Positions 16,941 to 51,492 of a stretch of DNA of 64,000 bases are shown here, in pieces. Each line of letters begins with the position of its first letter. The first letter of the stretch is position 1. Source of the DNA: Schmidtea polychroa. Its lineage: Eukaryota. Location: NCBI GenBank assembly GCA_044892525.1, contig CM097885.1, forward strand, positions 14,138,001-14,202,000, given 5' to 3'. Below the pieces are notes generated by a model, which ran no database searches, was not told the origin of the DNA, and saw only the letters and a program-made list of their open reading frames with translations. The position numbers and the translations under genes are program-made.

Positions 16941-16988
<48 letters not shown>
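16915..16988. repeat. (ATT)n microsatellite
   Basis: Direct reading. Confidence 0.9.
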
Positions 16989-17389: not shown

Positions 17390-17395
17390 GAGGAA

Positions 17396-25054: not shown

Positions 25055-25229
25055 ATTGTGATCTGCATGAATAGTGTATAAAAATATATTACATTTATAT
25101 TAACAATGTGCATGTTTTATAAGTACCATAGGATGAATTATGTAATTTGTTTGAGATTCGAAGCGAGGTGTTGATGCTTTGCGAATAAAGAGTGATACAA
25201 AAAAAATAACTATCATTTAATTTCAGAGA

Positions 25230-25475
25230 ATGCAAGAAGCCTCGGAGATGACATGCAAAGAGTGTAAAACAAGTACGCAAGAACTAAAACAAAAGTTTCG
25301 TAGCATGCAGGGCAGAATAACAGATTTGGAGGAAGAAAACTTCCGTCTGAAAAGGCGGTTGGACCGTTTGGAAATCTTATTGTTTCAACACGAAGCCGAT
25401 TTCGCGATGTTTCGAATGAGAGTAGAAGAAATGGAGGAATCGGAAGATGATGGTGAGATAAATCAATTAGACTAA
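25230..25475 (+). CDS. Small accessory ORF (81 aa): CxxC, leucine-zipper-like coil, acidic tail
   Basis: CKEC then heptads ITDLEEENFRLKRRLDRLE; ATG 4 nt after a splice acceptor (TTTAATTTCAG, 25226); GC-richer than flanks. Confidence 0.6.
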   Translation: MQEASEMTCKECKTSTQELKQKFRSMQGRITDLEEENFRLKRRLDRLEILLFQHEADFAMFRMRVEEMEESEDDGEINQLD

Positions 25476-25554
25476 AAAAATAAATTATTTAAACGGAGGA
25501 ATCGGAAGATGATGGTGAGATAAATCAATTAGACTAAAAAAATAAATTATTTAA

Positions 25555-25770
25555 ACGGCATGGGAATTAACAGTTAAATATCAGCGATGGATAACCGATC
25601 CAGGCAGATGGCAAACAGTTTTCGTGGAAGTCAAGACAATCAATGAATCGAAACGAAAATCATATACAACCACATCACCTCTCCAATTACCGACCCAAGA
25701 GACGACAAAACCTAACTCAAACAAACTAATGATGATAAATTCGGATTTGACAGTCAACTATTGTGAATAT
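25555..25770 (+). repeat. 216-bp direct repeat of 24707-24922, preceded by a 62-bp tandem duplication (25433-25558)
   Basis: Direct sequence identity; ACGG at the junctions. Confidence 0.93.
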
Positions 25771-26200
25771 ATTTTTTTCGTCCTCGAGAGAAAAAAAAAT
25801 AATAGTTAAATAATTATAAGTAAATTAACAAATAATCAAATGAATAAACAAATTGATATAAATAAATAAGTAAAAAAGTGATAAATTAAATGAATGAATA
25901 ATAGATAAAAATGAACAAAGTTAAACGAGCAAATAGAATAACTCAAATAAATGTTGCAAATAATGAAATGACTACCTTAAATGAGCATTAGAAATAAATA
26001 ATATGACTGATTAGTAATTAATGAATTAGCATAGCTATATAGCAATGGGTAACCCACTGGGCGAGAGGACAAAATTATAAACAAGTAAGGAATAATTTCA
26101 CATTAGTAGTAACAAAGACTAATCGCGAAGAGGGACACAATTACCCCACCCTTTCTAGCATAATTAAAAACAAAGGTATGCTGAACATTTATTCAAAGTT

Positions 26201-26502
26201 TTATTCGTCATCAGAGTCCAACAGAACGGGACTTTGGATGCCACAATCCCATTCCCTGCGTACATTGCAAGGCGGGCGTCTTTCAAACCTACTGCCTGTA
26301 TCCACACAGGCAAAGGTACGTTTCAATCCCTTTCGACGCGGTGGTAAAGGGACCCTGAAAAAGAAATTAAAAACCTGTTAGATGGCAGTTAAATAACCAT
26401 TGCATAACATCGAGATGTTCAAACTTAGGTTCTGGCACAGCCTAAAATAGTAAGGGTTGAAAAGAAAAAATGAAATAAATACTATGTAAAACTCCGTACC
26501 AT
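26201..26502 (-). CDS. Predicted 3-exon antisense gene, 66 aa (exons 26502-26500, 26441-26398, 26354-26201)
   Basis: GCCATG, then GTACGG..TTTTAG intron (58 nt), then GTTATT..CTAAC..TTTCAG intron (43 nt); spliced frame MAVPEPKFEHLDVMQWVPLPPRRKGLKRTFACVDTGSRFERRPPCNVRREWDCGIQSPVLLDSDDE*; AATAAA at and after the stop. Confidence 0.6.
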
Positions 26503-29500
26503 GGCGCCCTCGACAAATAATTAGTGCAGGGAAGTAATTGATTTTAAGAATTACGTAATAAATTAATAAGTATAAATACGGCTAAAATTGTCAGAAAAAT
26601 ACGAGTAGCTGTAATTAGAGGTTTGCTTTTAGTATAAATACAAAATCAAAAATCAAAAATATATGACCCAAAACATGAGTGTAGGTAGTTGCATAAACAA
26701 ATTAACGAATTAAAATTAAAAAGTAAATAAGTTAATTTAATATGCAACACGAGCACTTGCAATCACCGGGGTTTGGCTACCCTGGACAGCGATTGCAAGT
26801 GTTCGGTTACTATGAAGGTAGTTGAGGACAGCATGGTAAAAAGAATCACAAATACAAAAAATAACAAAAGATAGTTAATCACTTACGTCCATAGTAATTG
26901 AGGGATGGCGTTACTAAAATTCAAAAAAAAAAATATGAAAAGAAAAATAAAATATAAAATGCTTACTTCAAGATTGGCAAGACAAAACTAACGAAAAGTG
27001 GTAAAGCAGAAACTTATATAGAACGCTTATCAGTACAGACTACGTTGACAAACTACAGAGTAATTAATTAGAAAGCTTATCAGCACGGCTACGTAAGAAA
27101 CCACAGGGTAATTAATTATAGAGCCTATCGGTATCGGCTACGTCAAAAACCGCAGGATAAGAAAAAATTCATTCGGAATATTAATGTTCATCGCAGATAC
27201 CTTATCAGGCTGAGTAAACAGTCGGTCGGTGCGGGGGAGATTAACTTTTTACCATGCTGCGAGCGAAATAAACCAACAAATTATTAATAACAAAAAATTA
27301 TTTTTAAATCATAATATTAATAATAATAGTAATAATGATGAAAGAAAAAAGAAAAAAAAATAAAATAAAATAAATAAATTACCTTGCAACTGAGAATAAA
27401 TTAGGCATATATTCTGCACATAAAAATCGATTTCCGCAATCAATAAAAAAAAAAAAAAAAAAAAAAAATTTATCAGTGGTTTATCAAAATAAAAGCCCCA
27501 GAAAATTCGAGTCACAATGGCTTCCAAAATTCAATATGCGCTCCCTAGAAATATTTAAAACCAACCAATTCTGTTATTGGGTTGAGCTAATTTTTGTTCC
27601 CGGGTCGATAATAAAATTTGCGGTTGTGTCTGATAAGTAGAATGACTGACCAATCAGTTTGAAATATTCATTGGGATGAATTTTGAAGAAAATTGACACA
27701 CATATACACGCAAGTGCACTCATTTATAGATACACACAAAGAACCCCGATTAATGTACAAGTACCGTGAACTACTTAATTGTAAAGACACACACACAGAC
27801 AGACACACAAGCATGATTCCAACAAATATAATTTAATTTAAAAATTTTTTTTTTGAAACAACTAAATAACTTTTTATGATTGCAATTTTTTTTATGAATT
27901 AATTATTCAAATCAAACTTTATTTTCATCTCAGAGAATTAAATTTTTTTGAGAATTTACGTGGATAATAAAATTAAAACAACTTTTGAATGTTAAATGAA
28001 TATGTAGACCACATAATTTAGCTAATTGAATGTCTTTAATTTGGCCATTTTGCTTCAATTTCCACTTTTGTATAAAGAAATTATATTAAATCAATTTCAC
28101 CTTTAATACTTTTTCAGTGTTCTGTACCTCAGAATACTCAAATGAAATACTGTACGACACCATTTTTGAGTAATTCACATTTTGCGATTAAATAGTTTCA
28201 TTTATTTTAATTACCTCCTAATGAAGATTTTTAAGTAAAATAATTTTCACTATGTTTTCAATTTTTTTTTAAAATAATAATCTAATTAAAATATTTAATA
28301 TGAATTAATCATGAAACTTAAATTTTTGAAGAAGTTTATGTTTCACGTAGATCATCAATTCTTAACATTCCTCAATCATTGCTTCTAACTGCATAGCATT
28401 CTGGAACCATATATTCATATCTCTAATAAATTCATCATTTATTCTGAGAGAGGTTTTAACTACAATAACCTTACCAGACTGTCTTTGGTCTACTCGACCA
28501 TTTGAAAGATCCTGAAAATGTCTAATATCAGATAATATCTTTAACTGTGTTTCTGATCAGAATTAAATAATCCTTATATTTCATGCCTTTAATCCTTTAA
28601 TCCTTCACCGTCGCTGATTGAACGCGAATAATTTGAAAACATATAAATAAAATTACGTTTTAATATATATCATTAATATCCTTCACCGTCGCTGATTGAA
28701 CGCGAATAATTTGAAAACATATAAATAAAATTACGTTTTAATATATATCATTAATAAAGTAATAGAGAGACAATTAATGAGAAAAATCAGTTGTGATAAA
28801 CTGATATAGTTTCAAAATTTCTCCAATAGCAGGAATTATCGAATCGACCAATCGAATTCGTTTCGGATGACAGAAATATATTCTCTGTGCTGCCTATAAA
28901 CATACTTGAGCAAAATATTTATCAAAAATCGTATAGAAATTATCGAATCGACCAATCGAACTTGAGCAAAATATTGATCAAAAAGATTTTATCATTTTAA
29001 TAATAAAGAAACAAATTCAATATCAACTTTTTCTAAATGATTTTATTGTTTTGACATATTATCAAAGATTTTAGTCCCACGAAATTAGCCTGCCAATTTA
29101 CAAAAACTGATAAATCTTAAGTTATTACCTGGTAACAAATATAGTCGCTCATTTCATAACCACTTGGAGTTTCAGTTAATTAATTTTCGGCTTATTTCTG
29201 ATAAGAATTATGACGCGTAGGCATTATAAACGAGAATCTTAAAAACAATGATTTATTTACCATTATTCATTCTTATCAATTTTATTCCAGAAATCACATT
29301 AATAATACATAAATTAATCAAAGTCAAAATGTTCTCCATCTATAATGCGGAGAACTCGACATTAGTTGCTTATTTTTAGATAACTATTATATTTGGAGTT
29401 TATATTAGTTTTCCATATGCAAATTTTAGTTCATTGTTAAGTCTGTTTCCATTCCCAGACTTTATAAAATTCAGTGACGAAAACAATTGTTTACATGAAT

Positions 29501-30001
29501 ATGTTAAACAAAACATTATTAAAAGATAATCTTACAGTGTTATCATTGTAATAAGTATCTGGTGAAATTTGATATATATTTTTTTTGATATATAATTTTA
29601 AATTAAAAATAATGGCGATTTCAACACTGCCTAAATATATTTAAGTTATTATTACCGTTAGGGGGTTTCAATAGGCCAAGATTTCATTTAAATTCAATTA
29701 AATCGTTTGATCAATAATTAATAAAAACCACGACCAATTTCATCAAAAAAAAAGGGGGGTTTCAATAGGCCAAGATTTCATTTAAATTCAATTAAATCGT
29801 TTGATCAATAATTAATAAAAACCACGACCAATTTCATCATTTCTCATATTTTTGGGTTATTATTAATGAAATATCAAGGTTTTTATATCTTTCGACATTG
29901 GCGAAAACAATTGCTCATTGTAACATTATTTATGTATACTTGGTTAAAATTCAACAAAACTTTCCATTAAAACACAAATTTCGAGGACGAAAAGATTTTT
30001 T

Positions 30002-30012
30002 AAGGGGGGAGA
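30002..30012 (+). promoter_or_regulatory. Polypurine tract of copy 1
   Basis: AAGGGGGGAGA 2 nt upstream of the LTR start. Confidence 0.9.
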
Positions 30013-30014
30013 TA

Positions 30015-31055
30015 TGTTGAGGTCCGTAAATTAAAATTGAAAATTTAAATAAAATTTAGAATAATAATTCAAATGGAAAGTAAGCGAGGAAAAAAGGCAA
30101 ATAAAAGCGGGATCGTGCACAGAATCAATAGTAAAGGAAAGTGCGATGGAAACAGTATTAGAAAATGCAAAAAGCAATTACGAAAGGCGAGAATCCGGAA
30201 ATCCGAGAAAAATCAATAAATGGAAAAATCATCGAAATCGAATGGGAAAAACGGGACAGGTATAGATTAGCTAATGGTCAACAAGATGATGGTCAGGGAT
30301 TTATCAGAAAAGGGTTAGGAAGGGTCGAAAAACATTCAAACGTATGAAAACAGAAAACGTTAATTAATTAATTAATTGGCTAATGGAAAACCCGAGCCAA
30401 TGGAGAACCCGAGAGATAAAGGAAACCCGAGCTGGGTAAACAAGAAGAAAGGCAAACAAAAGGAAGATTTGGGCCCATTAGCTTGACACAATGATTAATG
30501 GGAAAAGAGTAAGGAGAAGATAGCGCGCGTAGGAAGACCGGTAGGGCCATTAATTATCTGGATTCGTTGGACCATTATGGATGACAGCCGAAGCAAACAC
30601 GTAGGAGAAAATGTCAAACGAAAGATTGGCTCGGCAATAACCATTTGTCATCCTGATTTCGAGGAGTATATAAGCAAAGGGAAAATCAGAGAAAATCGGC
30701 ATTTTGCCTCAGGTAGGTTAAGAAGAATTAGACTGTAGGAAAAGTGGTAAACGAATTAGGGAAGTAGGGAAAAGAAGAAATAGAATTAAGAATACGGAAA
30801 GGCGAAAAGGGATCAAACCAAAGAGAAACCGAGGAAAAAGAGAGTCGAGATAACTAAAGGATCAAAAGGTGAATATTGTTTGTTTGCAAAGCATCAACGC
30901 CGAGCGGAGAATCGTATAAAACTTTGATTGGTAATTGTAACGTGATAATAAATTGTGAACTTGTTGTTTCAATATACGTTGGGTCGTTCATTGTTTTACT
31001 TTAAAGAACACCAGGAGTCAGAGAGAACCGACTTGAAATAATCCAAAACCCAACA
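30015..31055 (+). repeat. Shared LTR (1041 bp): 3' LTR of copy 1 and 5' LTR of copy 2
   Basis: TGTTG..CAACA; preceded by PPT and followed by PBS; TATATAA 30667, candidate donor CAG|GTAGGT at 30713, AATAAA 30947. Confidence 0.96.
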
Positions 31056-31062
31056 TATATTC

Positions 31063-31081
31063 TGGTGAGCCCGACGTGATT
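31063..31081 (+). promoter_or_regulatory. Primer-binding site, tRNA-Trp
   Basis: TGGTGAGCCCGACGTGATT, one mismatch from the canonical tRNA-Trp PBS TGGTGACCCCGACGTGAT; 7 nt after the LTR end. Confidence 0.88.
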
Positions 31082-31303
31082 GAAAGTCGGCGGAAAATTA
31101 TTGAAAGTTAGTGGAAAAATTAATTGTTGGAAAAAATAGTACCGACGTGATTGAAAGTCGGCGGAAAATTATTGAAAGTTAGTGGAAAAATTAATTGTTG
31201 GAAAAAATAGTACCGACGTGATTGAAAGTCGGAGGGAAATTATTGAAAGCTAGTGAAAAAGGAATTATAAAAAGAATTAGTACTGACGTGAGTGAAAGTC
31301 GGC
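31071..31303 (+). repeat. ~71-bp tandem repeat in the 5' leader (3 full units plus 1 partial)
   Basis: Units start at 31071, 31142, 31213 and 31283 with C(C/T)GACGTGA(T/G)TGAAAGTCGG. Confidence 0.9.
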
Positions 31304-31455
31304 TTAGAAGTTTGAAAATAGTGTTAACGAGATTATAAAAGGCTATTATTGGGAGATTTAAAAGAAGTTGAAAAGTAATTTTAAATTATTGTTTAACGTT
31401 TGAAGTTTAGCTCAAAGTGAACCGATACAACCTCAGAAGTCAGAAACAAGTCCAA

Positions 31456-34400
31456 ATGGCAAATGATAATGCTGTTATGCCTCTCAATAGAGAGATGATT
31501 GACTTCGCAAGTTGCCAGAAATTACCCGTCAATCAATATGGAGGAGACCCTGTTGAATTTGCAGATTTCATGGGAGATTATTATATGTACGCCTCAGCAT
31601 ACGGATGGACACAAGCCATTATGGTTCAGAGATTCCCACTCTATCTGAAGGGTGCGGCAAGAGAAGCCTGGCAGCAAGTCGACAAACGAAATGTTGGCAA
31701 TGATTGGACAAAATTGAAGGATGCAATGGCACTGAAACTGGTTGGTGGAGATATCAAAAGAATCATGCGACAGAAATTTTATAATCGAGTTCAAGGTCCA
31801 GATGAATCGGTCAGTGAGTTTGCTTATCATCTGACCACTTTAGCAGATAAAGCCTTTGAAGTTAAACCAGACCAAGCAGAAATGGCCAAGCAGGTTAAAG
31901 AGCTATTAGAAGATCAGTTTATAACCGGAGTCCACTCCGAAATCAAAAAAGCCCTATGTTATGTGGATTTTTCCAATTTTGATGAGCTCGTGAAGAAAGC
32001 CATGAAGATAGAGCTGAATTTAAAAAGTGCAAAAAGATCAGATGCTTTTGGAGTTAATGTGGAGAGACGTGAGCGATCAATTACGCCTGTGAGAGCACCA
32101 TGGGATGAAAAGAAAATAAATCAAATCAGTAGTCCAATTTTGAGACCAAATAATAGATTTCAAGCCAGTAGATCAGCCATGAACGTACAATCAAATGGAC
32201 AGGTAAATAATCCTCAATGCGAACATTGCAAAAAGTCTGGACACTACTCAAATCAATGTTGGTTCAAATATGGGAGAAATCCCAGCCCTAACAAGAGATT
32301 TACAGAAAACAAACGGATCAGCAGTGATGTCGAATGCTATCGATGCGGAAAGAAAGGGCATATTAGCAGAAACTGTTTTACCAGATCAAGGTCATCGTCA
32401 ACGTCACCTTCACCACAAAGGGACAAAGTGAATACAAATGGACAGATCCAATGTCATTCGTGCAAGGGATACGGCCACATGGCTCGATCATGCCCAAGGA
32501 ACTCAGAAAGATTCAACAGACCTATCTTAAAGAAATCAATCAGATTCCAAGAAGATATGCCAAACACTAGTAATATGACATATGCTCAGAGAGAAGAATT
32601 TCAAGACAAAATGGAAAAGGAATTTCGAGAAATGCGACAGAAGCTGAACAAACTAGTGGCGAAATTTGAATCAGATGAGGAAACTGAATCTCATATGATA
32701 ATGGGAACCGTGTCAGAAGGTGAGGGAAAACCTGCCACGAAAGTGCGAAAGATCGCATCAGATGAGAATCCGACTACACTGTTAGCACGAGTCGAAAAAT
32801 GGCTTGAGAAAATGGAAACTGACAACTCCCAGTTGAAACGATGGATCGCAGAACTCAGTGTGATGTCACTAACCCAAAGCGAACTAAAGAGAGCCATAAA
32901 TTTATGTGCAAAGTTATTCAAAGGAAACAGAGACGATGAGATACGTAAACAAATGCAAAAGTTTGGCAAGGCTTTACGGTCAACAAGGGATTTAGCTGAT
33001 ATCATAGTGGAAACGACGGGACTTGATAATGTGAAGTGCCAATTCCGTGTAAATGCCTACGGACAAATCAGAGAGCTAAAGGAGCGAATACTGCGTCAAT
33101 ACAGTGGATGGCAAGTGCAATTAAAATATGAGAATCGATGTCTGGAAGACGAAGAGTACTTAGTAGATTGCGGTCTGATACCAGGCTGGAAAAATAAAGT
33201 AAATGTTATTAATGCTGTTAATACTTTGAATTCAGACAGACAAAATTGGGAAAAGATTCTAGCAGATTTACAAGATACCCTGTATGCAGGGAATAGAGAT
33301 AAAATTAATGCGAGTATCGACTTCATAATGAGCATCGAAATGGATCGAGACATGAAAGAAGGGTTGTTTGAATGCATCGTACCGTATACGAATAAACCGA
33401 CGAGTTATCAGGCAAAACTAAAAGAGGTAATCCGAAAACTAGGACATGATTATGAGGCGGCAGACGATAGTGCGAAGTCTTTGATAATAGCGTTAAATAT
33501 TGCGGATCAAAGGATTGAATATTATCAGGAACATTGGAGTGTAAAAGCAAAGAAAATACGACAAAAAGCAGCGGAGATATTAGGTAATGAAGGAATTATC
33601 GTGTTGACGTTCAAAGGACGAGAATTGGATGATGACGAATATTTATTAAACTACGGATGTAACCCAAATTGTATTAATAATGTGTACGCAACAAAACAAA
33701 GTGATGAAATGGAAAGAGATGCGGTAATAGTACCGTTTTGGCCTCTATATGAGGAAATGGATAATAATAATGTGGAGATTAAAACTGAAGTTGTAGATGA
33801 CCCAGGAGAAATTGATCAAGAAATTAATGAGTTGCAGAGATTAGAAACAATGGAAAATGAGGAAATGAGATCGGAAAATGAGGTTACAAGGGATATCGAG
33901 GAAATGAGCACCGATAATAGGATACTACCGAACATAGATGAGATGAAAAGCGAAGAGAACTTCGTTGAAACGAAAAATGACATTGCGATATGTCGGAAAA
34001 AACAGAATGATGCGGAAATTGAATCTTTGAGTTTAGATAAATCGAGCGAAACTGAGCGTTTAGATGAATCAAACGAGACTGAACGAATATTAAAAAGTTT
34101 AGTTACGGAATTGTACTTGTTAGATGAAACTGAAACAGAAGATGATACTTCGGAGGGGGAGGAAAGAGTTGTAAAAAGATTGGCAACGGAATTAAAGAGG
34201 AGATTACCGTCGATAATTAAAAGAAATTATGAAGAAAAGGAATTTTGTGAGGAAGCAGTGATTGAGGACCTAACACGAACTGAGTTGGATCGAGATGTAA
34301 TATTGACAGCGTTAGCTTATATAATATTGGAGATTGGTATTTATGGTTGTCTGGAAAATGACAGTTCAAAATCATTGATAAAGAAAGCTACGGAAATGAC

Positions 34401-37400
34401 GAATAAATATTTGGCTAGGTGGATCGCAAACAATGGCGGATGGGAAAATTTGATACAAAAGGCTGAGAGCCCAAAAACCGAGACAGTGAGGAAAAAGGGA
34501 AAACTCGCATTTCCATGGTTGATGATTTCTGTTATTATGTTATTGGGAATAATAAACACGACGAATTCATTGGTGGCATACGACTGCTCCCAAACCGAAA
34601 TGGGAAGAGTATATTCGTTGGTAAACGTAGCAGAGTGTTCGGATGCATATCCAGTAAAATTAAAAGTGACAAATCCAGTAAAATATTATGTATATCAAGA
34701 ATCGGGATTTCGACGAGCAAAGGTGAGAGAGTGTACAGTGAAACGAACTACTTTTGTATTTTATTGTGGAAAATGGAGTCACTCATCGATGGTGAAAATG
34801 CAATCGATACCTAGACCGATAGAAATAATTCCAGAGAATTGTTTGGCAGCCTTTCAAACAGGACAGTTGAAAATCAATGCAGATATCAAACTACAAGCAA
34901 AGCTTAACCACAAAATCCGTGAGACTGTAACCGTGCGAGGGATAATAAAGTCGAATGGTGATTGCCAAGGAGAGCCATACAAAGTAGACGATGCTATAAT
35001 TGACAAAGCCGTGGTTGTGGAAGAGTACATGTCAGAATTAAGAGAATTTGATGGATCATTTGATGATGATACTGGTAAACTACAAACACATCCATTCTGC
35101 AACATGAAACAATCTAGCTGTCAGACAGGAGAATCAATCTTGGTGTACGATGTCGATACCAAAAAGTGCAATTTAGTGCAATTGAAGTCAATGAGTTTTA
35201 AAGAAATAACGGGAGAACAGATCAGGGAAAAGCCTGAGAAAATAAGAATGGATCCAGCAACGAGTACAACAACGAGAATCACACCTCTACGGATGAAAGA
35301 TACTCCAACAGTGTTAATGTCAACCTCGGAGGAAGATGGGATGCGATTCCTGAGAAAAGAAACTAAAACAAAGTGTGGACAAAGTGTCTATGAGACAAAT
35401 TATAAAGGTATATATGTATCTCAGAAGATGATTACAGAGGCCCAAACAAACATACATGCCGGAGATATTAAGTTGACAAATTACTTTAATAACAAAATAG
35501 ATTATTTATTTCACTTTGGTCAAAATACTGTTGAAAATGTGTACCGAGAAGTTATTATAAATGATTGCAATCTCAACAAAGAAATACTCCGAAATCGGAT
35601 GGCAATGGCTATAACCAATCCTAATTTGGTAGCACCAATGTTAATTGCAGAAAATGGAGTGTTCGCCAGAATTTTCGGTGAAGCACTATATAGCTATAAA
35701 TGTAAAGCGGTACCAGTTAAACTGACAAAGTATGACCAATGCACCAACGAGTTACCAGTGAATTTAAATGGAAAGTTGCGATTTATGGAGCCTGTAACAC
35801 GAATCTTACTGGAAGAGGACACGAAACCGAAAGTATTACAGTGCAATAGATTGTTAGCACCATTATACAGACTAACACCAGAATCTTGGATTGCATTACC
35901 AGATCATCGAGAAGTAAAGACACCGGAAAACTTAGAATTGACAGAATTACAATATCTGGTAAATTTTACGTCGTTAGAAAAATTGTCGCAAAGTGGAATT
36001 TACTCGAACGAAGACATTGAGGAAGCTCGCAGAAACTTGTTATTTCCATCAAAGAAAGAAAGAGTAATAATGGAAATGGTAGATACAATTCTCCCAAGCG
36101 GAAGTGGGAAGGTAAATTATGAGTATTTATTAACTCCAGATCATTACAAGAAAGCGACGTATAATACAATGAAAAAGATCTGGGGAAAGTTTATGTTCAT
36201 TGAACAAGCGTGTGCCGGATTGATTGGAATTTATGTAATATGTGTTGTAATCAAAGTAATAATATCGCAGGTCTTATCAACACACAGATTATACGCGATC
36301 ACAGGTTGGTCGTGGAAACTAGTAATTGGTTGCATACCATTATTGGCTAGATTCTTCATTACTCATCATCAATATCAGGAGTTGGAGATACTCAAGGCTC
36401 GAATATTAAAGAAGAAAAAGGTGAGCTACGCTAGTACTACCCCTTCAAGGGACGAGAACAATGACAATGACAACGAGGGTGATAGTGCACCGTTATATGT
36501 TGACAATCAAGAACTAAGTGGAATGAATAAAGAAGCGTTAAGAACCTATCAAATCTTAAAAGAGCCACTGTTGAATGCGAGTAGCGTAGACACGTTTACA
36601 AAACTGTGTATACCAAAATCATTTATGCAACCAGCACCAGTGTATCCAGTTGATCGATTACGAGAGATGAAACCAGTGGAAAATATCGCATTGCAATGTG
36701 AAGGAATGGTAGGAGAGAGAATTGAGCCTTCTAGCGCAGAGATCGAGAGAAAAAACATGTTAGGCTTACCATGCAACTACTCAATGATGACATTAACAAA
36801 AAGAGGAAAGCAACCCCGAATATTTATACAAATGAACAAACATAAAGTGGAAGCTTTAGTTGATTCGGGATCTAGTCACACAATAGTATCGGAAAATGTA
36901 TTAAACGCGAAGGAAAAAAGGCGAATAAAGCCTACCGACGAAATAGTGAGGTCATTATCAAAAAATGAATTAAACATAATTGGACAACTTAACGTCATAT
37001 TCCATATTGGAGATCGAATAATAGCGCACGATGCGCTCATAATGAAGGGAAGTCCAGTACGATGTCTGATCGGCATGGATCTATTAGAGCAGCTGGACGG
37101 AGTCTCACTTGATTTAAAGACAGGTAATTTGATAGCAGGAGAAACAGGAGAAATAATTCACAGGGCAGGTGAAGTGTTTGTGAATCAGACATTGACAATA
37201 CCACCACAATCGGAGATGGTATATTGTGCAAATACCATGAGTGTGGATAATGGTGATTTTATATTCGAACCAAATCAAACGCTAGTCGAAAAATATGATT
37301 TACCGATATGTGACGAAGTTGTCAAAGTGAAAAATCAGATAGTACCAGTCCATATAACGAATAGCAGTAAGAAACCGGTTCAGCTACACCCAAAAACAAA

Positions 37401-40400
37401 ATTGGGAAAATTATCAAAAATGTCTATTGAAACAAATTGCAAAATACCAAGAAACGTCAAAGTGTATAAGGAGCCTGAAGTGGTAAGCAATGATTTAAAT
37501 GAGATGCAGAAAAAGGAATTTACAAAACTGTTGAGAAAATACCGAGATATCTTTGCTAAACACGAATATGATTTAGGTTTAACCAATGTAATTGAGCATG
37601 AAATACCGTTATTAGACGAAACTCCAATAAAAATAAAGCCATACAGAATCCCCTACGTTCATCAAGACGAAAGCGATAGACAGATTACAGCAATGAAGGA
37701 ATTTGGAATAATTCGAGATAGCGCGTCGCCATTCTCCTCATCAATAGTGATAGTTAAGAAAAAGGATGGAGACTTACGATTTTGCGTAGATTATCGGAAG
37801 CTAAATCAAGTTACGAGGAAAGACACTTATCCAATTCCAGTACCCCAAGAAATGTTTGATCAAATGGGAGAAGCACGATATTTCACTGTTATTGATTTAA
37901 ACAAAGGGTACAATCAATTTAGAGTAAAAGAGGAAGATAGAGGAAAGACGGCGTTCTCGGATGGCAAAGGACTGTATGAGTTCAATGTGTTACCATTTGG
38001 ATTAACAGGAGCCCCAGCTACATTCCAACGAGGAATGAATTATGTGTTACGAGGAATTCGACATGCATTGGTATATATCGACGATATAATAATATTTTCA
38101 AATGATTTTGAAGAACACCTGAAGGATGTAGAAACTGTATTTAAACGGCTCAAAAGTGCAAAATTAAAAATCAAACCATCGAAATGTGAATGGGGCAAAG
38201 CAGAAGTGATTTATGTAGGACATATAATATCACGGCGAGGGTTACAAACTAATCCAGATAACATCAAAAAAGTGGAAGAGTACCCAGTACCAAAAGATGC
38301 CGATGAGGTTAGACAATTTTTAGGTTTGGCGAGCTATTACAGAAAATTTATAAAAGATTTCTCTCATATCGCACAACCATTGAATACGTTACTAAAGAAA
38401 AACAATAAATTTATTTGGGGACAAATGCAACAAAACGCTTTCAATACATTAAAAGAGAAATTAGTAACAACTCCTATATTAAGATGTCCAGATTTTACAA
38501 AACAATTTATCTTGATGACGGATGCAAGCAACGTTGCATTGGGTGCGGTATTGGGACAAAAATTTGAAGGTGAAAAGGACCATGTAATAGCATACGCAAG
38601 CAGATCATTGAGGCCTCACGAGAAAAACTACTCAACGATTGAAAAGGAAACGTTAGCGTTAGTGTATGGAATTACTACTTTTAGACAATATTTATTGGGC
38701 AGAAAATTTACTGTTTATACAGATCATAATCCATTACAGTGGTTAATGAAACACAGAGATTCAGCCAGTAAGTTAATACGATGGTCAATTGCCCTCCAAG
38801 AATACGACTTTGAGATTAAATACCGGACAGGTAAAGCTAACGCGAATGCAGATGCAATGTCGAGAATCCCAGAAAATAATAGTGAAGGGACACCTGAAAA
38901 AGTGGAAGGCACTAGATTCGCAGCAATCAAAGCTGTTAATGATATGTCTGAACTTCAAAATGATCAGGAAAACGATAGTGAATTAAAACAATTTATGGAA
39001 CAAGCGGTCAAAATAAGAAAAGAACAAGACTGGAAATGACTTACAGATGCAAACAGCAAATATGTAATTCATAATGGAATACTTAAATGTTGGAAAAATG
39101 GGGAAGCATTAATTATTATACCAGCCAAGCACAGAGATGCATTACTGATGCAGTATCATGATGGAGCGTTGGGAGGTCATTTGTCAACGCGCAAGACGCT
39201 ATCAAGATTAAAATTGAAATACTTTTGGCCGACAATGGAACAAGACGTGAAAAATTGGTGTAACAGTTGCAAAGTATGCATCACCCGCAGAAATACTGGT
39301 AAAAAGATTAAAGTACCATTAAAACCGATGCCAGTACCTGCAGCACCAATGGAGATGACGGCAATGGATATTCTGGGACCATTACCGGAAACAACAAAAG
39401 GAAACAAATACATTGTTGTTTTTTGTGACTACTTTACCAAATGGCCAGAAGCATACGCTATTCCAAACCAAAAAGCAGATACGATTGCTAGAATATTTGT
39501 GGAAAACATAATATTTCGCTATGGTACTCCAAAGAAATTGTTAACTGATCAAGGAAAGAACTTTCAAAGCGAGATGTTTAAATCAATCACAGACTTATTT
39601 GGAATTTGGAAATTGAATACGTCACCATATCATCCACAAACTGATGGATTGGTGGAACGATTTAATGGGACACTGATAAATATGATCTCATCATATGTGA
39701 ATCGAAAACAGAAAGATTGGGACGACTTCATAAAGCCGTGTCTGTTTGCCTACAGAAATGCAGTAAATCAAAGTACAGGAGAGACCCCTTTTTACTTGAT
39801 GTATTTAAGGAAAAATAATATGCCGATTGATCTCAAATTCCAACCACCAATTTCGCAATATATGGAGATACCCGATTATAAAGCATTGATGCAAGAAAGA
39901 ATGCAGTCAGTATGGACTAAATCCGGTTTGACAATAAAGCACAACCAAGAGAAATATAAAGAATCATACGATAAAAAAGCACATGCGCATGGCATAAAGA
40001 TTGGAGATCTAGTATATCTGAACAGACCGGAACCTCTCAAAGGTTTATCGCCTAAATTGCAAAGACCATTTAAAGGACCCTACAAAGTGTGCGACACCAC
40101 CGAAACCAATTTGAAGTTATTACCATTCAGGAGTAAAAAAGCTAACCCGATGATTGTGCATGCAAATCGATGTAAACTAGTGCCAGAGGAAGATGAATCT
40201 AGATACCCCTTAAGATCCAAGCAGAATAAAGTAACGGGTCAAACAAAATTGAAACAGAAATTCACGAAAAATCCAACACCAGTCAGCTACATCAATAAGA
40301 TATTATATGTAGCAATAATGCTGATGTTAGTAACAGTTGCGAGCGGCAAAAAGATTGATTTACCATATGCGGTAAACAAAATCCGAGGAATGGAGAAAAT

Positions 40401-41322
40401 ACATATATATTCCACTCTAACAAATATAGTATGGAGCTGTAAATGCGAGATCGCAGACCAAATAGAAATTATTAATTTACTAGACAATACGGCACCAGTG
40501 GTAGAACTGAATTATGATAAAGATATAGTTGCGGTACGAAAGTTAAAGCCAAATTACAAATACCAATGGCTGTTGAGACAGAACATGTCAATGTGGTACA
40601 CGCAAATTCCGATAGAAGTGCACACAAAAGAGATGCGAAACTTGATCGAGATAGAACCAGAGATAAACGGAATCAATATATATTGGAAGCCAGTGGACTT
40701 GGTGAAAGTGCGAATCACATTTCAAGGGTTAAATGTCGACACCCTTAACTCGCGAAAATCATTTATCCGCTACGAGAAATTGAAAATGAATCAAAATTAT
40801 TCAGTTAATGCGAACTACTACGAGAACATATGCCTCGAAAATGGAACGGTAGTGAGAAACCAATGGTCACGATTTAAGAGTGAGACCCAGTCTATCTATC
40901 TCAGAGACGAGTCAAATCGTATAACCCTGAGTGTTGGAAATGGACCGGTAACGATATATAGAAAATCAGGAAATGATGAAAGAGTTGTTATTATCTACAA
41001 ACAAAAAACCCTGACTATATTAGATGCCGGTAATCATTTTTTTACACTTTACACTTCTGATTTAGAGACGGCATGGGAATTAACAGTTAAATATCAGCGA
41101 TGGATAACCGATCCAGGCAGATGGCAAACAGTTTTCGTGGAAGTCAAGACAATCAATGAATCGAAACGAAAATCATATACAACCACATCACCTCTCCAAT
41201 TACCGACCCAAGAGACGACAAAACCTAACTCAAACAAACTAATGATGATAAATTCGGATTTGACAGTCAACTATTGTGAATATATTTTTTTCGTCCTCGA
41301 GAGAAAAAAAAATAATAGTTAA
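31456..41322 (+). pseudogene. Gag-Ubl-Ubl-Bcl2-like-Env-Pol polyprotein broken by CGA>TGA at 39037-39039 and lacking the final TM
   Basis: ORFs 31417..39039 and 39148..41322 are in one frame; Gag motifs FPLYLKGAAREAW, QGPDESVSEF, DQFITGV; three CX2CX4HX4C knuckles at 32218-32493; copy 1 has CGA at the stop position. Confidence 0.93.
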
Positions 41323-41713
41323 ATAATTATAAGTAAATTAACAAATAATCAAATGAATAAACAAATTGATATAAATAAATAAGTAAAAAAGTGATAAATT
41401 AAATGAATGAATAATAGATAAAAATGAACAAAGTTAAACGAGCAAATAGAATAACTCAAATAAATGTTGCAAATAATGAAATGACTACCTTAAATGAGCA
41501 TTAGAAATAAATAATATGACTGATTAGTAATTAATGAATTAGCATAGCTATATAGCAATGGGTAACCCACTGGGCGAGAGGACAAAATTATAAACAAGTA
41601 AGGAATAATTTCACATTAGTAGTAACAAAGACTAATCGCGAAGAGGGACACAATTACCCCACCCTTTCTAGCATAATTAAAAACAAAGGTATGCTGAACA
41701 TTTATTCAAAGTT

Positions 41714-42015
41714 TTATTCGTCATCAGAGTCCAACAGAACGGGACTTTGGATGCCACAATCCCATTCCCTGCGTACATTGCAAGGCGGGCGTCTTTCAAA
41801 CCTACTGCCTGTATCCACACAGGCAAAGGTACGTTTCAATCCCTTTCGACGCGGTGGTAAAGGGACCCTGAAAAAGAAATTAAAAACCTGTTAGATGGCA
41901 GTTAAATAACCATTGCATAACATCGAGATGTTCAAACTTAGGTTCTGGCACAGCCTAAAATAGTAAGGGTTGAAAAGAAAAAATGAAATAAATACTATGT
42001 AAAACTCCGTACCAT
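41714..42015 (-). CDS. Second copy of the predicted 66-aa spliced antisense gene
   Basis: Same sequence as 26201-26502 (offset 15513); upstream region cut at 42084. Confidence 0.5.
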
Positions 42016-42085
42016 GGCGCCCTCGACAAATAATTAGTGCAGGGAAGTAATTGATTTTAAGAATTACGTAATAAATTAATAAGTT

Positions 42086-45000
42086 AATAATTCACAGGGC
42101 AGGTGAAGTGTTTGTGAATCAGACATTGACAATACCACCACAATCGGAGATGGTATATTGTGCAAATACCATGAGTGTGGATAATGGTGATTTTATATTC
42201 GAACCAAATCAAACGCTAGTCGAAAAATATGATTTACCGATATGTGACGAAGTTGTCAAAGTGAAAAATCAGATAGTACCAGTCCATATAACGAATAGCA
42301 GTAAGAAACCGGTTCAGCTACACCCAAAAACAAAATTGGGAAAATTATCAAAAATGTCTATTGAAACAAATTGCAAAATACCAAGAAACGTCAAAGTGTA
42401 TAAGGAGCCTGAAGTGGTAAGCAATGATTTAAATGAGATGCAGAAAAAGGAATTTACAAAACTGTTGAGAAAATACCGAGATATCTTTGCTAAACACGAA
42501 TATGATTTAGGTTTAACCAATGTAATTGAGCATGAAATACCGTTATTAGACGAAACTCCAATAAAAATAAAGCCATACAGAATCCCCTACGTTCATCAAG
42601 ACGAAAGCGATAGACAGATTACAGCAATGAAGGAATTTGGAATAATTCGAGATAGCGCGTCGCCATTCTCCTCATCAATAGTGATAGTTAAGAAAAAGGA
42701 TGGAGACTTACGATTTTGCGTAGATTATCGGAAGCTAAATCAAGTTACGAGGAAAGACACTTATCCAATTCCAGTACCCCAAGAAATGTTTGATCAAATG
42801 GGAGAAGCACGATATTTCACTGTTATTGATTTAAACAAAGGGTACAATCAATTTAGAGTAAAAGAGGAAGATAGAGGAAAGACGGCGTTCTCGGATGGCA
42901 AAGGACTGTATGAGTTCAATGTGTTACCATTTGGATTAACAGGAGCCCCAGCTACATTCCAACGAGGAATGAATTATGTGTTACGAGGAATTCGACATGC
43001 ATTGGTATATATCGACGATATAATAATATTTTCAAATGATTTTGAAGAACACCTGAAGGATGTAGAAACTGTATTTAAACGGCTCAAAAGTGCAAAATTA
43101 AAAATCAAACCATCGAAATGTGAATGGGGCAAAGCAGAAGTGATTTATGTAGGACATATAATATCACGGCGAGGGTTACAAACTAATCCAGATAACATCA
43201 AAAAAGTGGAAGAGTACCCAGTACCAAAAGATGCCGATGAGGTTAGACAATTTTTAGGTTTGGCGAGCTATTACAGAAAATTTATAAAAGATTTCTCTCA
43301 TATCGCACAACCATTGAATACGTTACTAAAGAAAAACAATAAATTTATTTGGGGACAAATGCAACAAAACGCTTTCAATACATTAAAAGAGAAATTAGTA
43401 ACAACTCCTATATTAAGATGTCCAGATTTTACAAAACAATTTATCTTGATGACGGATGCAAGCAACGTTGCATTGGGTGCGGTATTGGGACAAAAATTTG
43501 AAGGTGAAAAGGACCATGTAATAGCATACGCAAGCAGATCATTGAGGCCTCACGAGAAAAACTACTCAACGATTGAAAAGGAAACGTTAGCGTTAGTGTA
43601 TGGAATTACTACTTTTAGACAATATTTATTGGGCAGAAAATTTACTGTTTATACAGATCATAATCCATTACAGTGGTTAATGAAACACAGAGATTCAGCC
43701 AGTAAGTTAATACGATGGTCAATTGCCCTCCAAGAATACGACTTTGAGATTAAATACCGGACAGGTAAAGCTAACGCGAATGCAGATGCAATGTCGAGAA
43801 TCCCAGAAAATAATAGTGAAGGGACACCTGAAAAAGTGGAAGGCACTAGATTCGCAGCAATCAAAGCTGTTAATGATATGTCTGAACTTCAAAATGATCA
43901 GGAAAACGATAGTGAATTAAAACAATTTATGGAACAAGCGGTCAAAATAAGAAAAGAACAAGACTGGAAATGACTTACAGATGCAAACAGCAAATATGTA
44001 ATTCATAATGGAATACTTAAATGTTGGAAAAATGGGGAAGCATTAATTATTATACCAGCCAAGCACAGAGATGCATTACTGATGCAGTATCATGATGGAG
44101 CGTTGGGAGGTCATTTGTCAACGCGCAAGACGCTATCAAGATTAAAATTGAAATACTTTTGGCCGACAATGGAACAAGACGTGAAAAATTGGTGTAACAG
44201 TTGCAAAGTATGCATCACCCGCAGAAATACTGGTAAAAAGATTAAAGTACCATTAAAACCGATGCCAGTACCTGCAGCACCAATGGAGATGACGGCAATG
44301 GATATTCTGGGACCATTACCGGAAACAACAAAAGGAAACAAATACATTGTTGTTTTTTGTGACTACTTTACCAAATGGCCAGAAGCATACGCTATTCCAA
44401 ACCAAAAAGCAGATACGATTGCTAGAATATTTGTGGAAAACATAATATTTCGCTATGGTACTCCAAAGAAATTGTTAACTGATCAAGGAAAGAACTTTCA
44501 AAGCGAGATGTTTAAATCAATCACAGACTTATTTGGAATTTGGAAATTGAATACGTCACCATATCATCCACAAACTGATGGATTGGTGGAACGATTTAAT
44601 GGGACACTGATAAATATGATCTCATCATATGTGAATCGAAAACAGAAAGATTGGGACGACTTCATAAAGCCGTGTCTGTTTGCCTACAGAAATGCAGTAA
44701 ATCAAAGTACAGGAGAGACCCCTTTTTACTTGATGTATTTAAGGAAAAATAATATGCCGATTGATCTCAAATTCCAACCACCAATTTCGCAATATATGGA
44801 GATACCCGATTATAAAGCATTGATGCAAGAAAGAATGCAGTCAGTATGGACTAAATCCGGTTTGACAATAAAGCACAACCAAGAGAAATATAAAGAATCA
44901 TACGATAAAAAAGCACATGCGCATGGCATAAAGATTGGAGATCTAGTATATCTGAACAGACCGGAACCTCTCAAAGGTTTATCGCCTAAATTGCAAAGAC

Positions 45001-47018
45001 CATTTAAAGGACCCTACAAAGTGTGCGACACCACCGAAACCAATTTGAAGTTATTACCATTCAGGAGTAAAAAAGCTAACCCGATGATTGTGCATGCAAA
45101 TCGATGTAAACTAGTGCCAGAGGAAGATGAATCTAGATACCCCTTAAGATCCAAGCAGAATAAAGTAACGGGTCAAACAAAATTGAAACAGAAATTCACG
45201 AAAAATCCAACACCAGTCAGCTACATCAATAAGATATTATATGTAGCAATAATGCTGATGTTAGTAACAGTTGCGAGCGGCAAAAAGATTGATTTACCAT
45301 ATGCGGTAAACAAAATCCGAGGAATGGAGAAAATACATATATATTCCACTCTAACAAATATAGTATGGAGCTGTAAATGCGAGATCGCAGACCAAATAGA
45401 AATTATTAATTTACTAGACAATACGGCACCAGTGGTAGAACTGAATTATGATAAAGATATAGTTGCGGTACGAAAGTTAAAGCCAAATTACAAATACCAA
45501 TGGCTGTTGAGACAGAACATGTCAATGTGGTACACGCAAATTCCGATAGAAGTGCACACAAAAGAGATGCGAAACTTGATCGAGATAGAACCAGAGATAA
45601 ACGGAATCAATATATATTGGAAGCCAGTGGACTTGGTGAAAGTGCGAATCACATTTCAAGGGTTAAATGTCGACACCCTTAACTCGCGAAAATCATTTAT
45701 CCGCTACGAGAAATTGAAAATGAATCAAAATTATTCAGTTAATGCGAACTACTACGAGAACATATGCCTCGAAAATGGAACGGTAGTGAGAAACCAATGG
45801 TCACGATTTAAGAGTGAGACCCAGTCTATCTATCTCAGAGACGAGTCAAATCGTATAACCCTGAGTGTTGGAAATGGACCGGTAACGATATATAGAAAAT
45901 CAGGAAATGATGAAAGAGTTGTTATTATCTACAAACAAAAAACCCTGACTATATTAGATGCCGGTAATCATTTTTTTACACTTTACACTTCTGATTTAGA
46001 GACGGCATGGGAATTAACAGTTAAATATCAGCGATGGATAACCGATCCAGGCAGATGGCAAACAGTTTTCGTGGAAGTCAAGACAATCAATGAATCGAAA
46101 CGAAAATCATATACAACCACATCACCTCTCCAATTACCGACCCAAGAGACGACAAAACCTAACTCAAACAAACTAATGATGATAAATTCGGATTTGACAG
46201 TCAACTATTGTGAATATATTTTTTTCGTCCTCGAGAGAAAAAAAAATAATAGTTAAATAATTATAAGTAAATTAACAAATAATCAAATGAATAAACAAAT
46301 TGATATAAATAAATAAGTAAAAAAGTGATAAATTAAATGAATGAATAATAGATAAAAATGAACAAAGTTAAACGAGCAAATAGAATAACTCAAATAAATG
46401 TTGCAAATAATGAAATGACTACCTTAAATGAGCATTAGAAATAAATAATATGACTGATTAGTAATTAATGAATTAGCATAGCTATATAGCAATGGGTAAC
46501 CCACTGGGCGAGAGGACAAAATTATAAACAAGTAAGGAATAATTTCACATTAGTAGTAACAAAGACTAATCGCGAAGAGGGACACAATTACCCCACCCTT
46601 TCTAGCATAATTAAAAACAAAGGTATGCTGAACATTTATTCAAAGTTTTATTCGTCATCAGAGTCCAACAGAACGGGACTTTGGATGCCACAATCCCATT
46701 CCCTGCGTACATTGCAAGGCGGGCGTCTTTCAAACCTACTGCCTGTATCCACACAGGCAAAGGTACGTTTCAATCCCTTTCGACGCGGTGGTAAAGGGAC
46801 CCTGAAAAAGAAATTAAAAACCTGTTAGATGGCAGTTAAATAACCATTGCATAACATCGAGATGTTCAAACTTAGGTTCTGGCACAGCCTAAAATAGTAA
46901 GGGTTGAAAAGAAAAAATGAAATAAATACTATGTAAAACTCCGTACCATGGCGCCCTCGACAAATAATTAGTGCAGGGAAGTAATTGATTTTAAGAATTA
47001 CGTAATAAATTAATAAGT
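42086..47018 (+). repeat. Tandem duplicate of 37152-42084 (RT-RH-IN-ectodomain and start of 3' region)
   Basis: Constant offset 4934; same TGA (43971-43973) and same private variants; junction AATAAGT-T-AATAATTCAC. Confidence 0.95.
46648..46949 (-). CDS. Third copy of the predicted 66-aa spliced antisense gene
   Basis: Same sequence as 26201-26502 (offset 20447). Confidence 0.55.
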
Positions 47019-50000: not shown

Positions 50001-50353
50001 GTATCTGGTGAAATTTGATATATATTTTTTTTGATATATAATTTTAAATTAAAAATAATGGCGATTTCAACACTGCCTAAATATATTTAAGTTATTATTA
50101 CCGTTAGGGGGTTTCAATAGGCCAAGATTTCATTTAAATTCAATTAAATCGTTTGATCAATAATTAATAAAAACCACGACCAATTTCATCATTTCTCATA
50201 TTTTTGGGTTATTATTAATGAAATATCAAGGTTTTTATATCTTTCGACATTGGCGAAAACAATTGCTCATTGTAACATTATTTATGTATACTTGGTTAAA
50301 ATTCAACAAAACTTTCCATTAAAACACAAATTTCGAGGACGAAAAGATTTTTT

Positions 50354-50364
50354 AAGGGGGGAGA
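50354..50364 (+). promoter_or_regulatory. Polypurine tract of copy 2
   Basis: AAGGGGGGAGA just upstream of the 3' LTR. Confidence 0.9.
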
Positions 50365-50366
50365 TA

Positions 50367-51407: not shown

Positions 51408-51408
<1 letters not shown>

Positions 51409-51492
<84 letters not shown>
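51409..51492. repeat. (TAA)n microsatellite abutting the 3' LTR
   Basis: Direct reading. Confidence 0.95.

Follow-up and report, generated by a model that had tools for sequence, protein, structure and literature searches.

Can a retroelement carry its envelope protein in the middle of its Gag-Pol polyprotein and, if so, how would such a chain be expressed? The question is raised by a locus in the planarian Schmidtea polychroa, a 64,000-nucleotide stretch of contig CM097885.1 (assembly GCA_044892525.1, positions 14,138,001–14,202,000 of the forward strand; hereafter the window, whose own numbering is used throughout), which consists in its central part of two tandem copies, A and B, of one envelope (Env)-bearing Ty3/gypsy-type long terminal repeat (LTR) family with one LTR in common. 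By joining the gag-bearing copy to the copy with an intact end, an earlier note on this DNA had obtained a single frame of ∼3,319 amino acids (aa) in which Env lies between Gag and the Pol enzymes and is preceded by ubiquitin-like (Ubl) and Bcl-2-like modules, and had proposed a recently active element whose polyprotein is threaded through the membrane of the endoplasmic reticulum (ER). We found that such a frame exists naturally in the genome. As a whole, the data are best explained by an env-bearing Ty3/gypsy family that has a one-frame polyprotein, a Burro-type layout and probably ER-threaded expression, and that corresponds to the catalogued Smed_errantivirus_2; we put the probability of this combined reading at roughly three in four.

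When the AT-rich, 781-Mb genome was searched with the first 2,527 residues of copy B, 19 matches were scored, all of which cover aa 1–2527 colinearly with 99–100% identity and are spread over four chromosome-scale contigs. The inserted domains are therefore not missing from the other copies, which the earlier note had named as the outcome that would speak for a one-off chimera. Five of the 19 lie within stop-free frames of 3,334 or 3,336 codons, and a genome scan with the Pfam glycoprotein profile PF24664 raised the number of distinct stop-free full-frame loci to at least eight. The 3,334-codon frame corresponds to 3,319 residues from the first ATG (31456 in copy B), so that the length obtained by joining two copies has natural equivalents. 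An intact member of the family is ∼17.4 kb long and consists of LTRs of 1,041 bp each, a leader containing 71-bp repeats, the one long frame and a non-coding 3′ region of ∼5 kb. The order within the frame is Gag with three CCHC motifs, Ubl, a helical linker, a second Ubl, an acidic linker, the Bcl-2-like domain, a signal-like segment, a class III glycoprotein with its transmembrane segment (TM), protease (PR), reverse transcriptase (RT), RNase H (RH), integrase (IN), another signal-like segment, an ectodomain of ∼310 aa and a final TM. This is the order given in the earlier note, and all its segments were recovered by Pfam, a CCHC regular expression, profile and fold searches or hydropathy. 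Assignment to Ty3/gypsy follows from the TG...CA LTRs, the purine tract, a site resembling a primer-binding site (PBS), the PR-RT-RH-IN order combined with a CCHC Gag, and short target-site duplications; in addition, the C-terminal part of the integrase matches Ty3 Gag-Pol (PDB 7q5b, E 7e-4).

The limits of the LTR are well defined. In other genomic copies, the 5′ LTRs start matching the window at 30010–30015, the purine tract AAGGGGGGAGA at 30002–30012 is directly followed by TGTTG, and the similarity between the window LTRs stops at 31055 and 51407 (...CCCAACA); the LTR that copies A and B have in common is therefore placed at 30015–31055. Two motifs were located in it by eye, a TATATAAG box (near 30665) and AATAAA (near 30947). 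There are 42 genomic matches to the LTR (94–100% identity), often as same-strand pairs ∼16 kb apart, and target-site duplications of 4 bp were seen in four of the four LTR pairs examined, one of which sits in a microsatellite and is uninformative. The number of 71-bp leader repeats differs among copies and contigs, with contig joints skipping 72 or 81 nt. The family is young, has many copies and appears in RNA reads, and the recent activity that had been deduced from near-identical copies is upheld by the many copies that are 99% identical and by the duplicated target sites. As for the insertion sites, a tRNA-like 3′ end (GGTTCGAATCC) precedes one copy by ∼35 bp (5′ flank, L030), and microsatellites of the (TAA)n or (TTA)n type harbour two insertions, including that of the window (51408–51490).

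The ∼3,319-aa frame is absent from any single copy in the window, because copy B has an in-frame TGA and a deletion, and copy A is truncated at its 5′ end. The interval 30015–41322, in which the element was noticed, starts exactly with the LTR and ends with a frame of copy B, and the element continues to the 3′ LTR. Homology of A to B begins at B 33751, in the acidic linker, so that A is without its 5′ third; from there on, A 17390–24922 and B 33751–41283 are 99.92% identical in self-BLAST, 25549–29745 pairs with 45994–50191, and 29755–31055 matches 50107–51407 at 99.92%. At the position of the TGA of copy B, copy A has a sense codon, and its frame (17369–25054) runs without a stop between RH and IN to a complete C-terminal end that includes the TM. 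Two 224-bp direct repeats of copy A (24699–24922 and 25549–25770), 850 bp apart, have the last TM and the natural stop between them, whereas copy B has a single 224-bp repeat and has lost both. The A-type sequence continues past 41283 in contigs from three public runs and the full A-type end is found in 40 of the 40 scored genomic matches, so the deletion in copy B is private to the window locus. The ∼5 kb between the frame end and the 3′ LTR (25055–30014 in copy A) is non-coding, with no frame of at least 150 codons and, in 25000–31500, no Rfam match. A heptad-rich frame of 84 codons (25221–25475, +) with no Pfam match follows closely on the end of the copy A polyprotein and belongs to the 850 bp missing from B.

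PF24664 (Monjiviricetes_fusion) matches the frame with 311 bits (E 1e-92; cut-off 27) over profile positions 6–210 and 241–628 of 653, between CCHC and PR and with hydrophobic segments on either side, as expected of a GAG-ENV-POL errantivirus-like element. The glycoprotein, hereafter G, has no sequence relative in PDB and no named viral relative among the near-length database matches. Its TM is followed by a conserved membrane-proximal stretch and then a variable tail. The first signal-like segment comes ∼15 aa after the BH2 motif of the Bcl-2-like domain and directly before the ectodomain of G; an equivalent segment precedes the glycoprotein in a second family of the same genome (family 2), in four distant database polyproteins (P0001–P0004), in a third family (family 3, from the alignment) and in P0012.

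After the integrase, the frame ends in a second membrane module, which is complete in copy A; its counterpart in copy B (40282–41283) is without the TM. The ectodomain of this module is 35% identical to that of family 2, with conserved Trp, Asn and Tyr columns, and could not be linked to anything else: Pfam gave no match, a PDB sequence search matched the Ty3 IN part only, no homologue was found among database proteins of 215–686 aa, and a profile of the ectodomain gave no significant match to P0001–P0004 or family 3, so that its similarity is not detectable beyond family 2. Language-model neighbours in the Atlas offered weak fibronectin-III or cytokine-receptor leads, all below 0.9. The hydrophobic pattern is nevertheless the same in seven of seven lineages (the window family, families 2 and 3, and P0001–P0004), namely signal, G, TM, then after IN a signal, 210–400 aa and a TM, and in all seven a fast-evolving ectodomain and a short basic tail end the polyprotein. 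These alternating segments would fit a topology in which Gag-Ubl-Bcl-2-like and PR-IN are cytosolic and both ectodomains are luminal.

Families 2 and 3 and the distant polyproteins show how much of the layout is kept. Family 2 was found with P0004 as the query; half of its scored loci (nine of 18) are open over 3,435 or 3,437 codons without a stop, and it is 51.8% identical to copy B over aa 8–1679 in one high-scoring segment pair. Identity is high in the Gag capsid (69%) and the G ectodomain (70%) and lower in Ubl 1 (35%), Ubl 2 (43%), the Bcl-2-like part (38%, gap-free) and the acidic linker (21%, gapped). Family 3 came from a genome scan with PF00452, nine matches of which lie inside frames of 3,051–3,058 codons with the order CCHC, Bcl-2 (E 9e-5), G, PR, RT, RH, IN. 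P0001–P0004 (2,627–4,029 aa, 22–40% identity) have G, PR, RT, RH and IN in one open reading frame (ORF), and two of the four also have gag and Ubl-like parts upstream; the Bcl-2-like part is not detectable in these four and is present in P0009 and P0012. Thus, families 2 and 3 and all four distant polyproteins retain an Env-PR-RT-RH-IN core plus the tail module. The ratio of non-synonymous to synonymous substitution rates (dN/dS), calculated from small counts for a single pair with a degraded copy at 95.8% identity, is 0.17 overall, 0.04–0.08 in Gag, 0.38 in the Ubl region, 0.29 in the Bcl-2-like part plus signal and 0.13 in G. Together, these comparisons are evidence that the layout, kept in three families of this genome, has been under purifying selection. 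Two further features of the relatives may be mentioned. P0001, P0002 and P0003 have two or three retroviral-type protease domains per polyprotein, one of which, in P0001 and P0003, lies after the integrase. Family 2 has an extra frame of 496 codons downstream of the polyprotein (L010:2686–4173), with no counterpart by tblastn in window 25001–30014; a reading of this frame by eye as an exonuclease was dropped, as no Pfam family matched at E<=0.01.

The two modules that follow Gag could be assigned by their predicted fold. An AlphaFold2 (AF2) model of aa 520–780, built from a 7-row alignment, has a mean predicted local distance difference test score (pLDDT) of 78.4 and contains two beta-grasp units with helices between them. 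With this model, Foldseek returned 78 PDB matches at E<=1e-3, headed by ISG15 (E 6e-6) and linear di-ubiquitin; single-domain matches have TMt values of 0.74–0.80 and root-mean-square deviations of 2.0–3.0 Å. The Pfam ubiquitin profile matches in two stretches (E 7e-5) with 22.9 bits, below its cut-off of 25.4, a C-terminal Gly-Gly is absent from the sequence of both domains, and hhalign of the region against host ubiquitin gave a probability of 2.7%. Given the sub-cut-off score and the missing Gly-Gly, the two modules are, on the modelled fold, Ubl domains rather than ubiquitin. Near-canonical ubiquitin or di-ubiquitin units (95–112 bits) do occur inside other long multicopy frames of the genome (e.g. 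one of 1,395 codons), where other transposable elements seem to carry true ubiquitin.

The Bcl-2-like domain, which follows an acidic linker that aligns with gaps (aa 766–930), is identified by more distant similarity. Its motif WIANNGGW aligns with the Bcl-2 BH2 motif WIQDNGGW, and a hydrophobic segment lies ∼15 aa further on. The hydrophobic stretch at aa 963–981 aligns with the central helix of Bcl-2 and is therefore not regarded as a TM. A search of a representative database with B aa 500–1030 gave seven matches, none of which covers the Bcl-2-like part. Bcl-2 family ORFs are also multicopy outside these retroelements (about 40 loci), and one of 152 aa (L019:978–1433, −) scores 32.5 bits, above the Pfam cut-off; a further Bcl-2 group has frames of ∼176–179 codons with one in-frame TAG each.

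Transcription was followed in four public runs, one recorded as single-cell RNA-seq, of which ∼2% was read, and three contig runs presumed to be RNA. From the single-cell run, 4,459 reads fall on 30015–42085 at ≥95% identity; they cover 30 of 30 bins with a depth of 10–77 per bin and have a strand bias of about five-fold (sum of two depth columns). Thirty-eight read molecules begin at 30261 (+), within the LTR and ∼400 bp upstream of the TATA-like box, and a contig of 7.5 kb follows the element colinearly from its LTR as far as RT, save for a repeat-unit difference. No splice joint with canonical ends exceeded the listing threshold in the four runs. The sole long joint, from 30494 to 34735, was rejected as a splice (four reads, TT..GT ends, five extra letters), and the loose ends that resemble poly(A) tails behind 34226 and 41886 were put down to internal priming, as the template is A-rich at both places.

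These data suggest the following mode of expression. The unspliced genomic RNA would be the sole mRNA, and the nascent chain would be threaded through the ER membrane, with Gag-Ubl-Bcl-2-like in the cytosol, the Env ectodomain in the lumen, PR-RT-RH-IN in the cytosol and the second ectodomain in the lumen. Signal peptidase would cleave after both signal-like segments and the protease of the element at the cytosolic junctions. The Bcl-2-like domain would stay held at the membrane by the Env signal, which would serve as its C-terminal tail anchor, giving it the topology of cellular Bcl-2 and resembling the flavivirus capsid anchor. Particles would bud with the G-like protein as fusogen, and the Ubl and Bcl-2-like modules might act on the ubiquitin and apoptosis pathways of the host. 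Since the post-integrase module is conserved in seven lineages and the Env signal lies where a Bcl-2 tail anchor is expected, in the most far-reaching form of this model a Gag-Env-Pol-glycoprotein-2 chain would span the ER membrane four times, and a single round of translation would supply both a Bcl-2 mimic anchored in the membrane and two distinct surface glycoproteins; we offer this version tentatively, at somewhat less than even odds.

A number of points weigh against this account. One frame would yield Gag and Pol in equal amounts, something that retroelements tend not to do, their dosage being set in retroviruses and errantiviruses by frameshift, readthrough or splicing, and we found no compensating mechanism in the element. 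Translation as one chain and the cleavage sites are what we infer from the sequence, and the mechanism is to be taken as plausible. The signal-like and TM segments were assigned by a Kyte-Doolittle scan and by eye rather than with trained prediction software. Only one N-x-S/T sequon occurs in the 545 aa of the G ectodomain, a low number for a glycoprotein exposed to the lumen, and a second moderately hydrophobic stretch after the TM of G could alter the topology. All dN/dS values are from one pair, and that of the Bcl-2 part from only seven synonymous and eight non-synonymous changes. At an identity threshold of ≥95%, the RNA reads do not tell one copy from another and so cannot be placed at the window locus, and only a small part of the one true RNA run was sampled. 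An alternative that would solve the dosage problem accepts the long frame but regards the in-frame linkage as incidental: Env, possibly together with the tail glycoprotein, would come for the most part from subgenomic RNAs that are spliced or initiated internally. Gypsy and retroviral Env are expressed from spliced RNA, and at the read depth reached here minor isoforms could have escaped. We nevertheless consider this explanation unlikely: the four runs contain no canonical-end joint past the threshold, and the stop-free Gag-Env-Pol linkage is kept in three families and four distant polyproteins at 22–52% identity, which would not be expected were the linkage unused. The window locus is clearly rearranged (a shared LTR, a truncated copy, the 4.9-kb internal duplication and the deletion), as would be the case if the layout were a one-off chimera or an assembly artefact. 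That explanation is refuted by the colinearity of all 19 scored copies, the 2,581 PF24664 candidates that the genome scan gave at first look, the target-site duplications of all four pairs, and the presence of the same sequence in public runs of several studies. The proposal of a recently active, env-bearing retroelement with one ER-threaded polyprotein is consistent with all tests that were run, namely the membrane segments of the seven lineages, the lack of a supported splice joint, the target-site duplications and the 99% identical copies.

For the Bcl-2-like module, another interpretation is that of a helical linker with a chance GGW, without homology to Bcl-2 and without a role in apoptosis. 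Its PF00452 score of 17.5 bits is below the gathering cut-off of 31.4, and an NWGR-type BH1 motif, which the host Bcl-2 genes of the same genome have, is missing from the aligned columns of all four element sequences. The AF2 model of this part (3-sequence alignment) has a low-confidence pLDDT of 49; Foldseek with this model found no PDB match at E<=1e-3 and the VIA wide search found only generic helical bundles (best Z 9.1), and hhalign against host Bcl-2 reached a probability of 50.7% over 32 columns. On the other hand, a 4-sequence profile of the elements searched against PDB gave Bcl-xL or Bcl-2 in 60 of the 60 matches listed (best E 4.9e-5), the Atlas language-model neighbours are Bcl-2-like 15 (0.90), BID (0.89) and Bcl-2-like 14, and family 3 reaches 23.4 bits in hmmscan and 29 bits in the genome scan. 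Families 2 and 3, P0009 and P0012 all retain the BH2 motif, with a hydrophobic anchor just after it. Moreover, a BCL2-like motif was independently described in the text on the Burro elements (Arkhipova and Yushenova, 2019; PMC6431247), the only paper that a literature search for a Bcl-2 homologue in LTR elements turned up. A chance linker is thus improbable, and we keep the reading of this module as Bcl-2-like.

Table 1. Features of copies A and B in the window, with the basis of each assignment.
Feature	Position	Strand	Basis or remark
Copy A	17390–30014	+	5′-truncated internal region; LTR 30015–31055 in common with copy B
Copy B	30015–51407	+	Full-length LTR element
Stop-to-stop frames	17369–25054 (2,561 codons); 31411–39039 (2,542); 39040–41322 (760); 42075–43973; 43974–46256	+	ORF list
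LTR (3′ of A, 5′ of B), 1,041 bp, TGTTG...CAACA	30015–31055	+	5′ LTRs of other copies and sequence reading
PBS-like TGGTGAGCCCGACG, TGG-starting, 7 nt after LTR; then 71-bp tandem repeat ×3.3 (31071–31303)	31063–31303	+	Sequence; putative PBS
Gag, capsid-like Retrotrans_gag aa 75–160 (frame start 31411) and CCHC at aa 270, 309, 348	31456–32493	+	Pfam PF03732 E 1e-8, PF00098 E 8e-9; regular expression
Ubl 1 aa 531–601, helical linker aa 602–685, Ubl 2 aa 689–763	33001–33699	+	AF2 model, Foldseek, Pfam
Bcl-2-like, matched aa 943–1017, BH2-like WIANNGGW	34237–34461	+	Pfam PF00452 E 0.006, 17.5 bits; profile against PDB
Signal-like segment, aa 1026–1056, RKKGK-LAFPWLMISVIMLLGIINTTNS then LVAYDC	34486–34578	+	Hydropathy scan, sequence; basic n-region
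Env, class III-type viral fusion glycoprotein; ectodomain ∼aa 1057–1599, TM aa 1600–1618 (36208–36264)	34525–36459	+	PF24664
Protease aa 1800–1897, reverse transcriptase aa 2115–2273, RNase H aa 2336–2465	36808–38805	+	Pfam RVP, gag-asp_proteas, RVT_1 E 5e-33, RT_RNaseH E 4e-40
In-frame TGA, copy B, between RNase H and integrase	39037–39039	+	Frames; duplicate stop at 43971–43973
Integrase, H2C2 zinc domain and catalytic core; Ty3-like IN C-terminal part downstream	39118–39636	+	Pfam PF17921 E 2e-20, rve E 6e-12
Post-integrase membrane module, copy A: signal-like 23921–23995, ∼312-aa ectodomain 23996–24931, TM 24932–24988, short tail, stop	23921–25054	+	Hydropathy
Deletion junction, copy B	41283–41284	+	Self-BLAST; ∼850 bp missing relative to copy A
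Internal tandem duplication, copy B, 4.9-kb unit	37152–42087 repeated as 42086–47022	+	Self-BLAST 99.98%; includes TGA stop and deletion
3′ LTR of copy B	50367–51407	+	Self-BLAST, genome matches; (TAA)n microsatellite flank after

Outside the two copies, the window contains two direct repeats of ∼4.4 kb (12597–16987 and 56316–60661, 97–98.7% identical) that bracket the A+B array plus ∼5 kb of other sequence. A DDE_1 transposase fragment (11019–11516, +; E 4e-33) lies near inverted repeats of 358 and 863 bp (98.7–100% identical; 1–1216 with 5674–8690), which suggest a DNA transposon. ARAGORN predicted a tRNA-SeC gene (anticodon TCA) at 53455–53541 (−), and a frame at 62494–63003 (+) has weak matches to RING (E 1e-3) and a TRAF-type zinc finger (E 7e-5).

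Much of this layout is already in print. Chary and Hayashi (eLife 2026; PMC13524379) report the GAG-ENV-POL order with a gB-type ENV in Nematoda, Bryozoa and Platyhelminthes, citing Sacco et al. (2022) for nematodes, and place their Platyhelminthes elements in Ty3/gypsy. The supplement of that paper lists six Schmidtea mediterranea elements, among them Smed_errantivirus_2, with a copy number of 215 and no LTR or PBS. By eye count in this supplement, rather than computed alignment, the Smed_errantivirus_2 ENV ectodomain agrees with the window in 248 of 251 residues, and on this sequence agreement the window family is the catalogued Smed_errantivirus_2, likewise a multicopy planarian Ty3/gypsy element with GAG-ENV-POL order and a class III ('HSV/gB-type') ENV. 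The text of the paper treats GAG, ENV and POL as three ORFs, whereas the window family has one frame, and a word search of its main text, figures aside, gave no mention of fused, polyprotein, single ORF, in-frame, ubiquitin, Bcl or apoptosis.

The one-frame layout itself was described for the Burro elements (Arkhipova and Yushenova, 2019; PMC6431247). As given in that text, Burro encodes a single giant polyprotein in which Gag (retrotrans_gag plus three CCHC) is followed by a Ubi2/SUMO-like domain, BCL2, an in-frame env that matches mononegavirus fusion glycoproteins, and PR-RT-RH-IN; the element exceeds 30 kb and its 4,873-aa ORF1 also contains MATH_TRAF_C, BIR, ankyrin, AIR1, Smc and dUTPase-like domains. 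Compared by description only, Burro/GYPSM1 of Schmidtea mediterranea and the window element thus have in common Gag with three CCHC motifs, Ubl, a BCL2-like domain, an in-frame env and PR...IN in one ORF. With ∼17.4 kb, 3,334 codons and none of the Burro extras (MATH, BIR, ankyrin, AIR1, Smc, dUTPase-like) at Pfam E<=0.01 on its frame, the window element is not Burro1 itself; by its layout, it is a compact Burro relative. Genome scans did not lead to copies of Burro: the inhibitor-of-apoptosis domain BIR gave at least 150 matches, nearly all of them in an unrelated multicopy frame of 392–393 codons, dUTPase gave the host gene only, and MATH gave nothing. The novelty claimed for the architecture therefore does not hold, and no new class is opened, as the layout was published for Burro in 2019 (PMC6431247) and the family is listed in the 2026 catalogue (PMC13524379). 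An architecture already catalogued was one of the two outcomes that the earlier note had itself named as refuting. In a word search of these two texts, figures aside, signal peptides, membrane topology and the module after the integrase were not mentioned; the post-integrase membrane module and the Env signal as a Bcl-2 tail anchor thus appear to be the only parts for which we found no description.

The family offers a natural case of a fusion glycoprotein inside a Gag-Pol polyprotein, which raises questions of dosage, topology and processing, and its Ubl and Bcl-2-like modules might influence cell death in a host well known for its stem-cell turnover. To the published layout, the present analysis adds the exact LTRs and target-site duplications, model-based structural support for two Ubl domains, indications of selection, conservation in three families, transcription support without visible splicing, and a conserved membrane module after the integrase that had not been described in the texts searched.

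Among the closest known systems are Smed_errantivirus_2 and Burro/GYPSM1, the latter said to have been studied also by Grohme et al. in 2018 and by Jurka in 2007. Nematode gag-env-pro-pol endogenous retroviruses, reportedly the subject of Sacco et al. (2022, J Gen Virol), would resemble the window family as metaviruses with a captured RNA-virus glycoprotein gene upstream of pol, in a different host phylum. The errantiviruses of Drosophila and the retroviruses likewise have LTRs, replicate by reverse transcription and encode Gag, PR-RT-RH-IN and a protein for membrane fusion. In gypsy-type errantiviruses and vertebrate retroviruses, however, env follows pol as a separate ORF expressed from a spliced RNA, and the gypsy env is of class I/F type, whereas in the window family env is in frame before PR. 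We know of no reverse-transcribing element with an ER-threaded expression strategy of the kind proposed here. In the flavivirus polyprotein, an internal signal both tethers the cytosolic protein that precedes it and initiates translocation of the glycoprotein that follows, and the chain is cut by host signal peptidase and the viral serine protease. Flaviviruses differ in being RNA viruses with a serine protease and without reverse transcription; the likeness to their capsid-anchor-prM arrangement, judged here solely from the positions of hydrophobic segments, would lie in the alternation of cytosolic and luminal parts along one chain.

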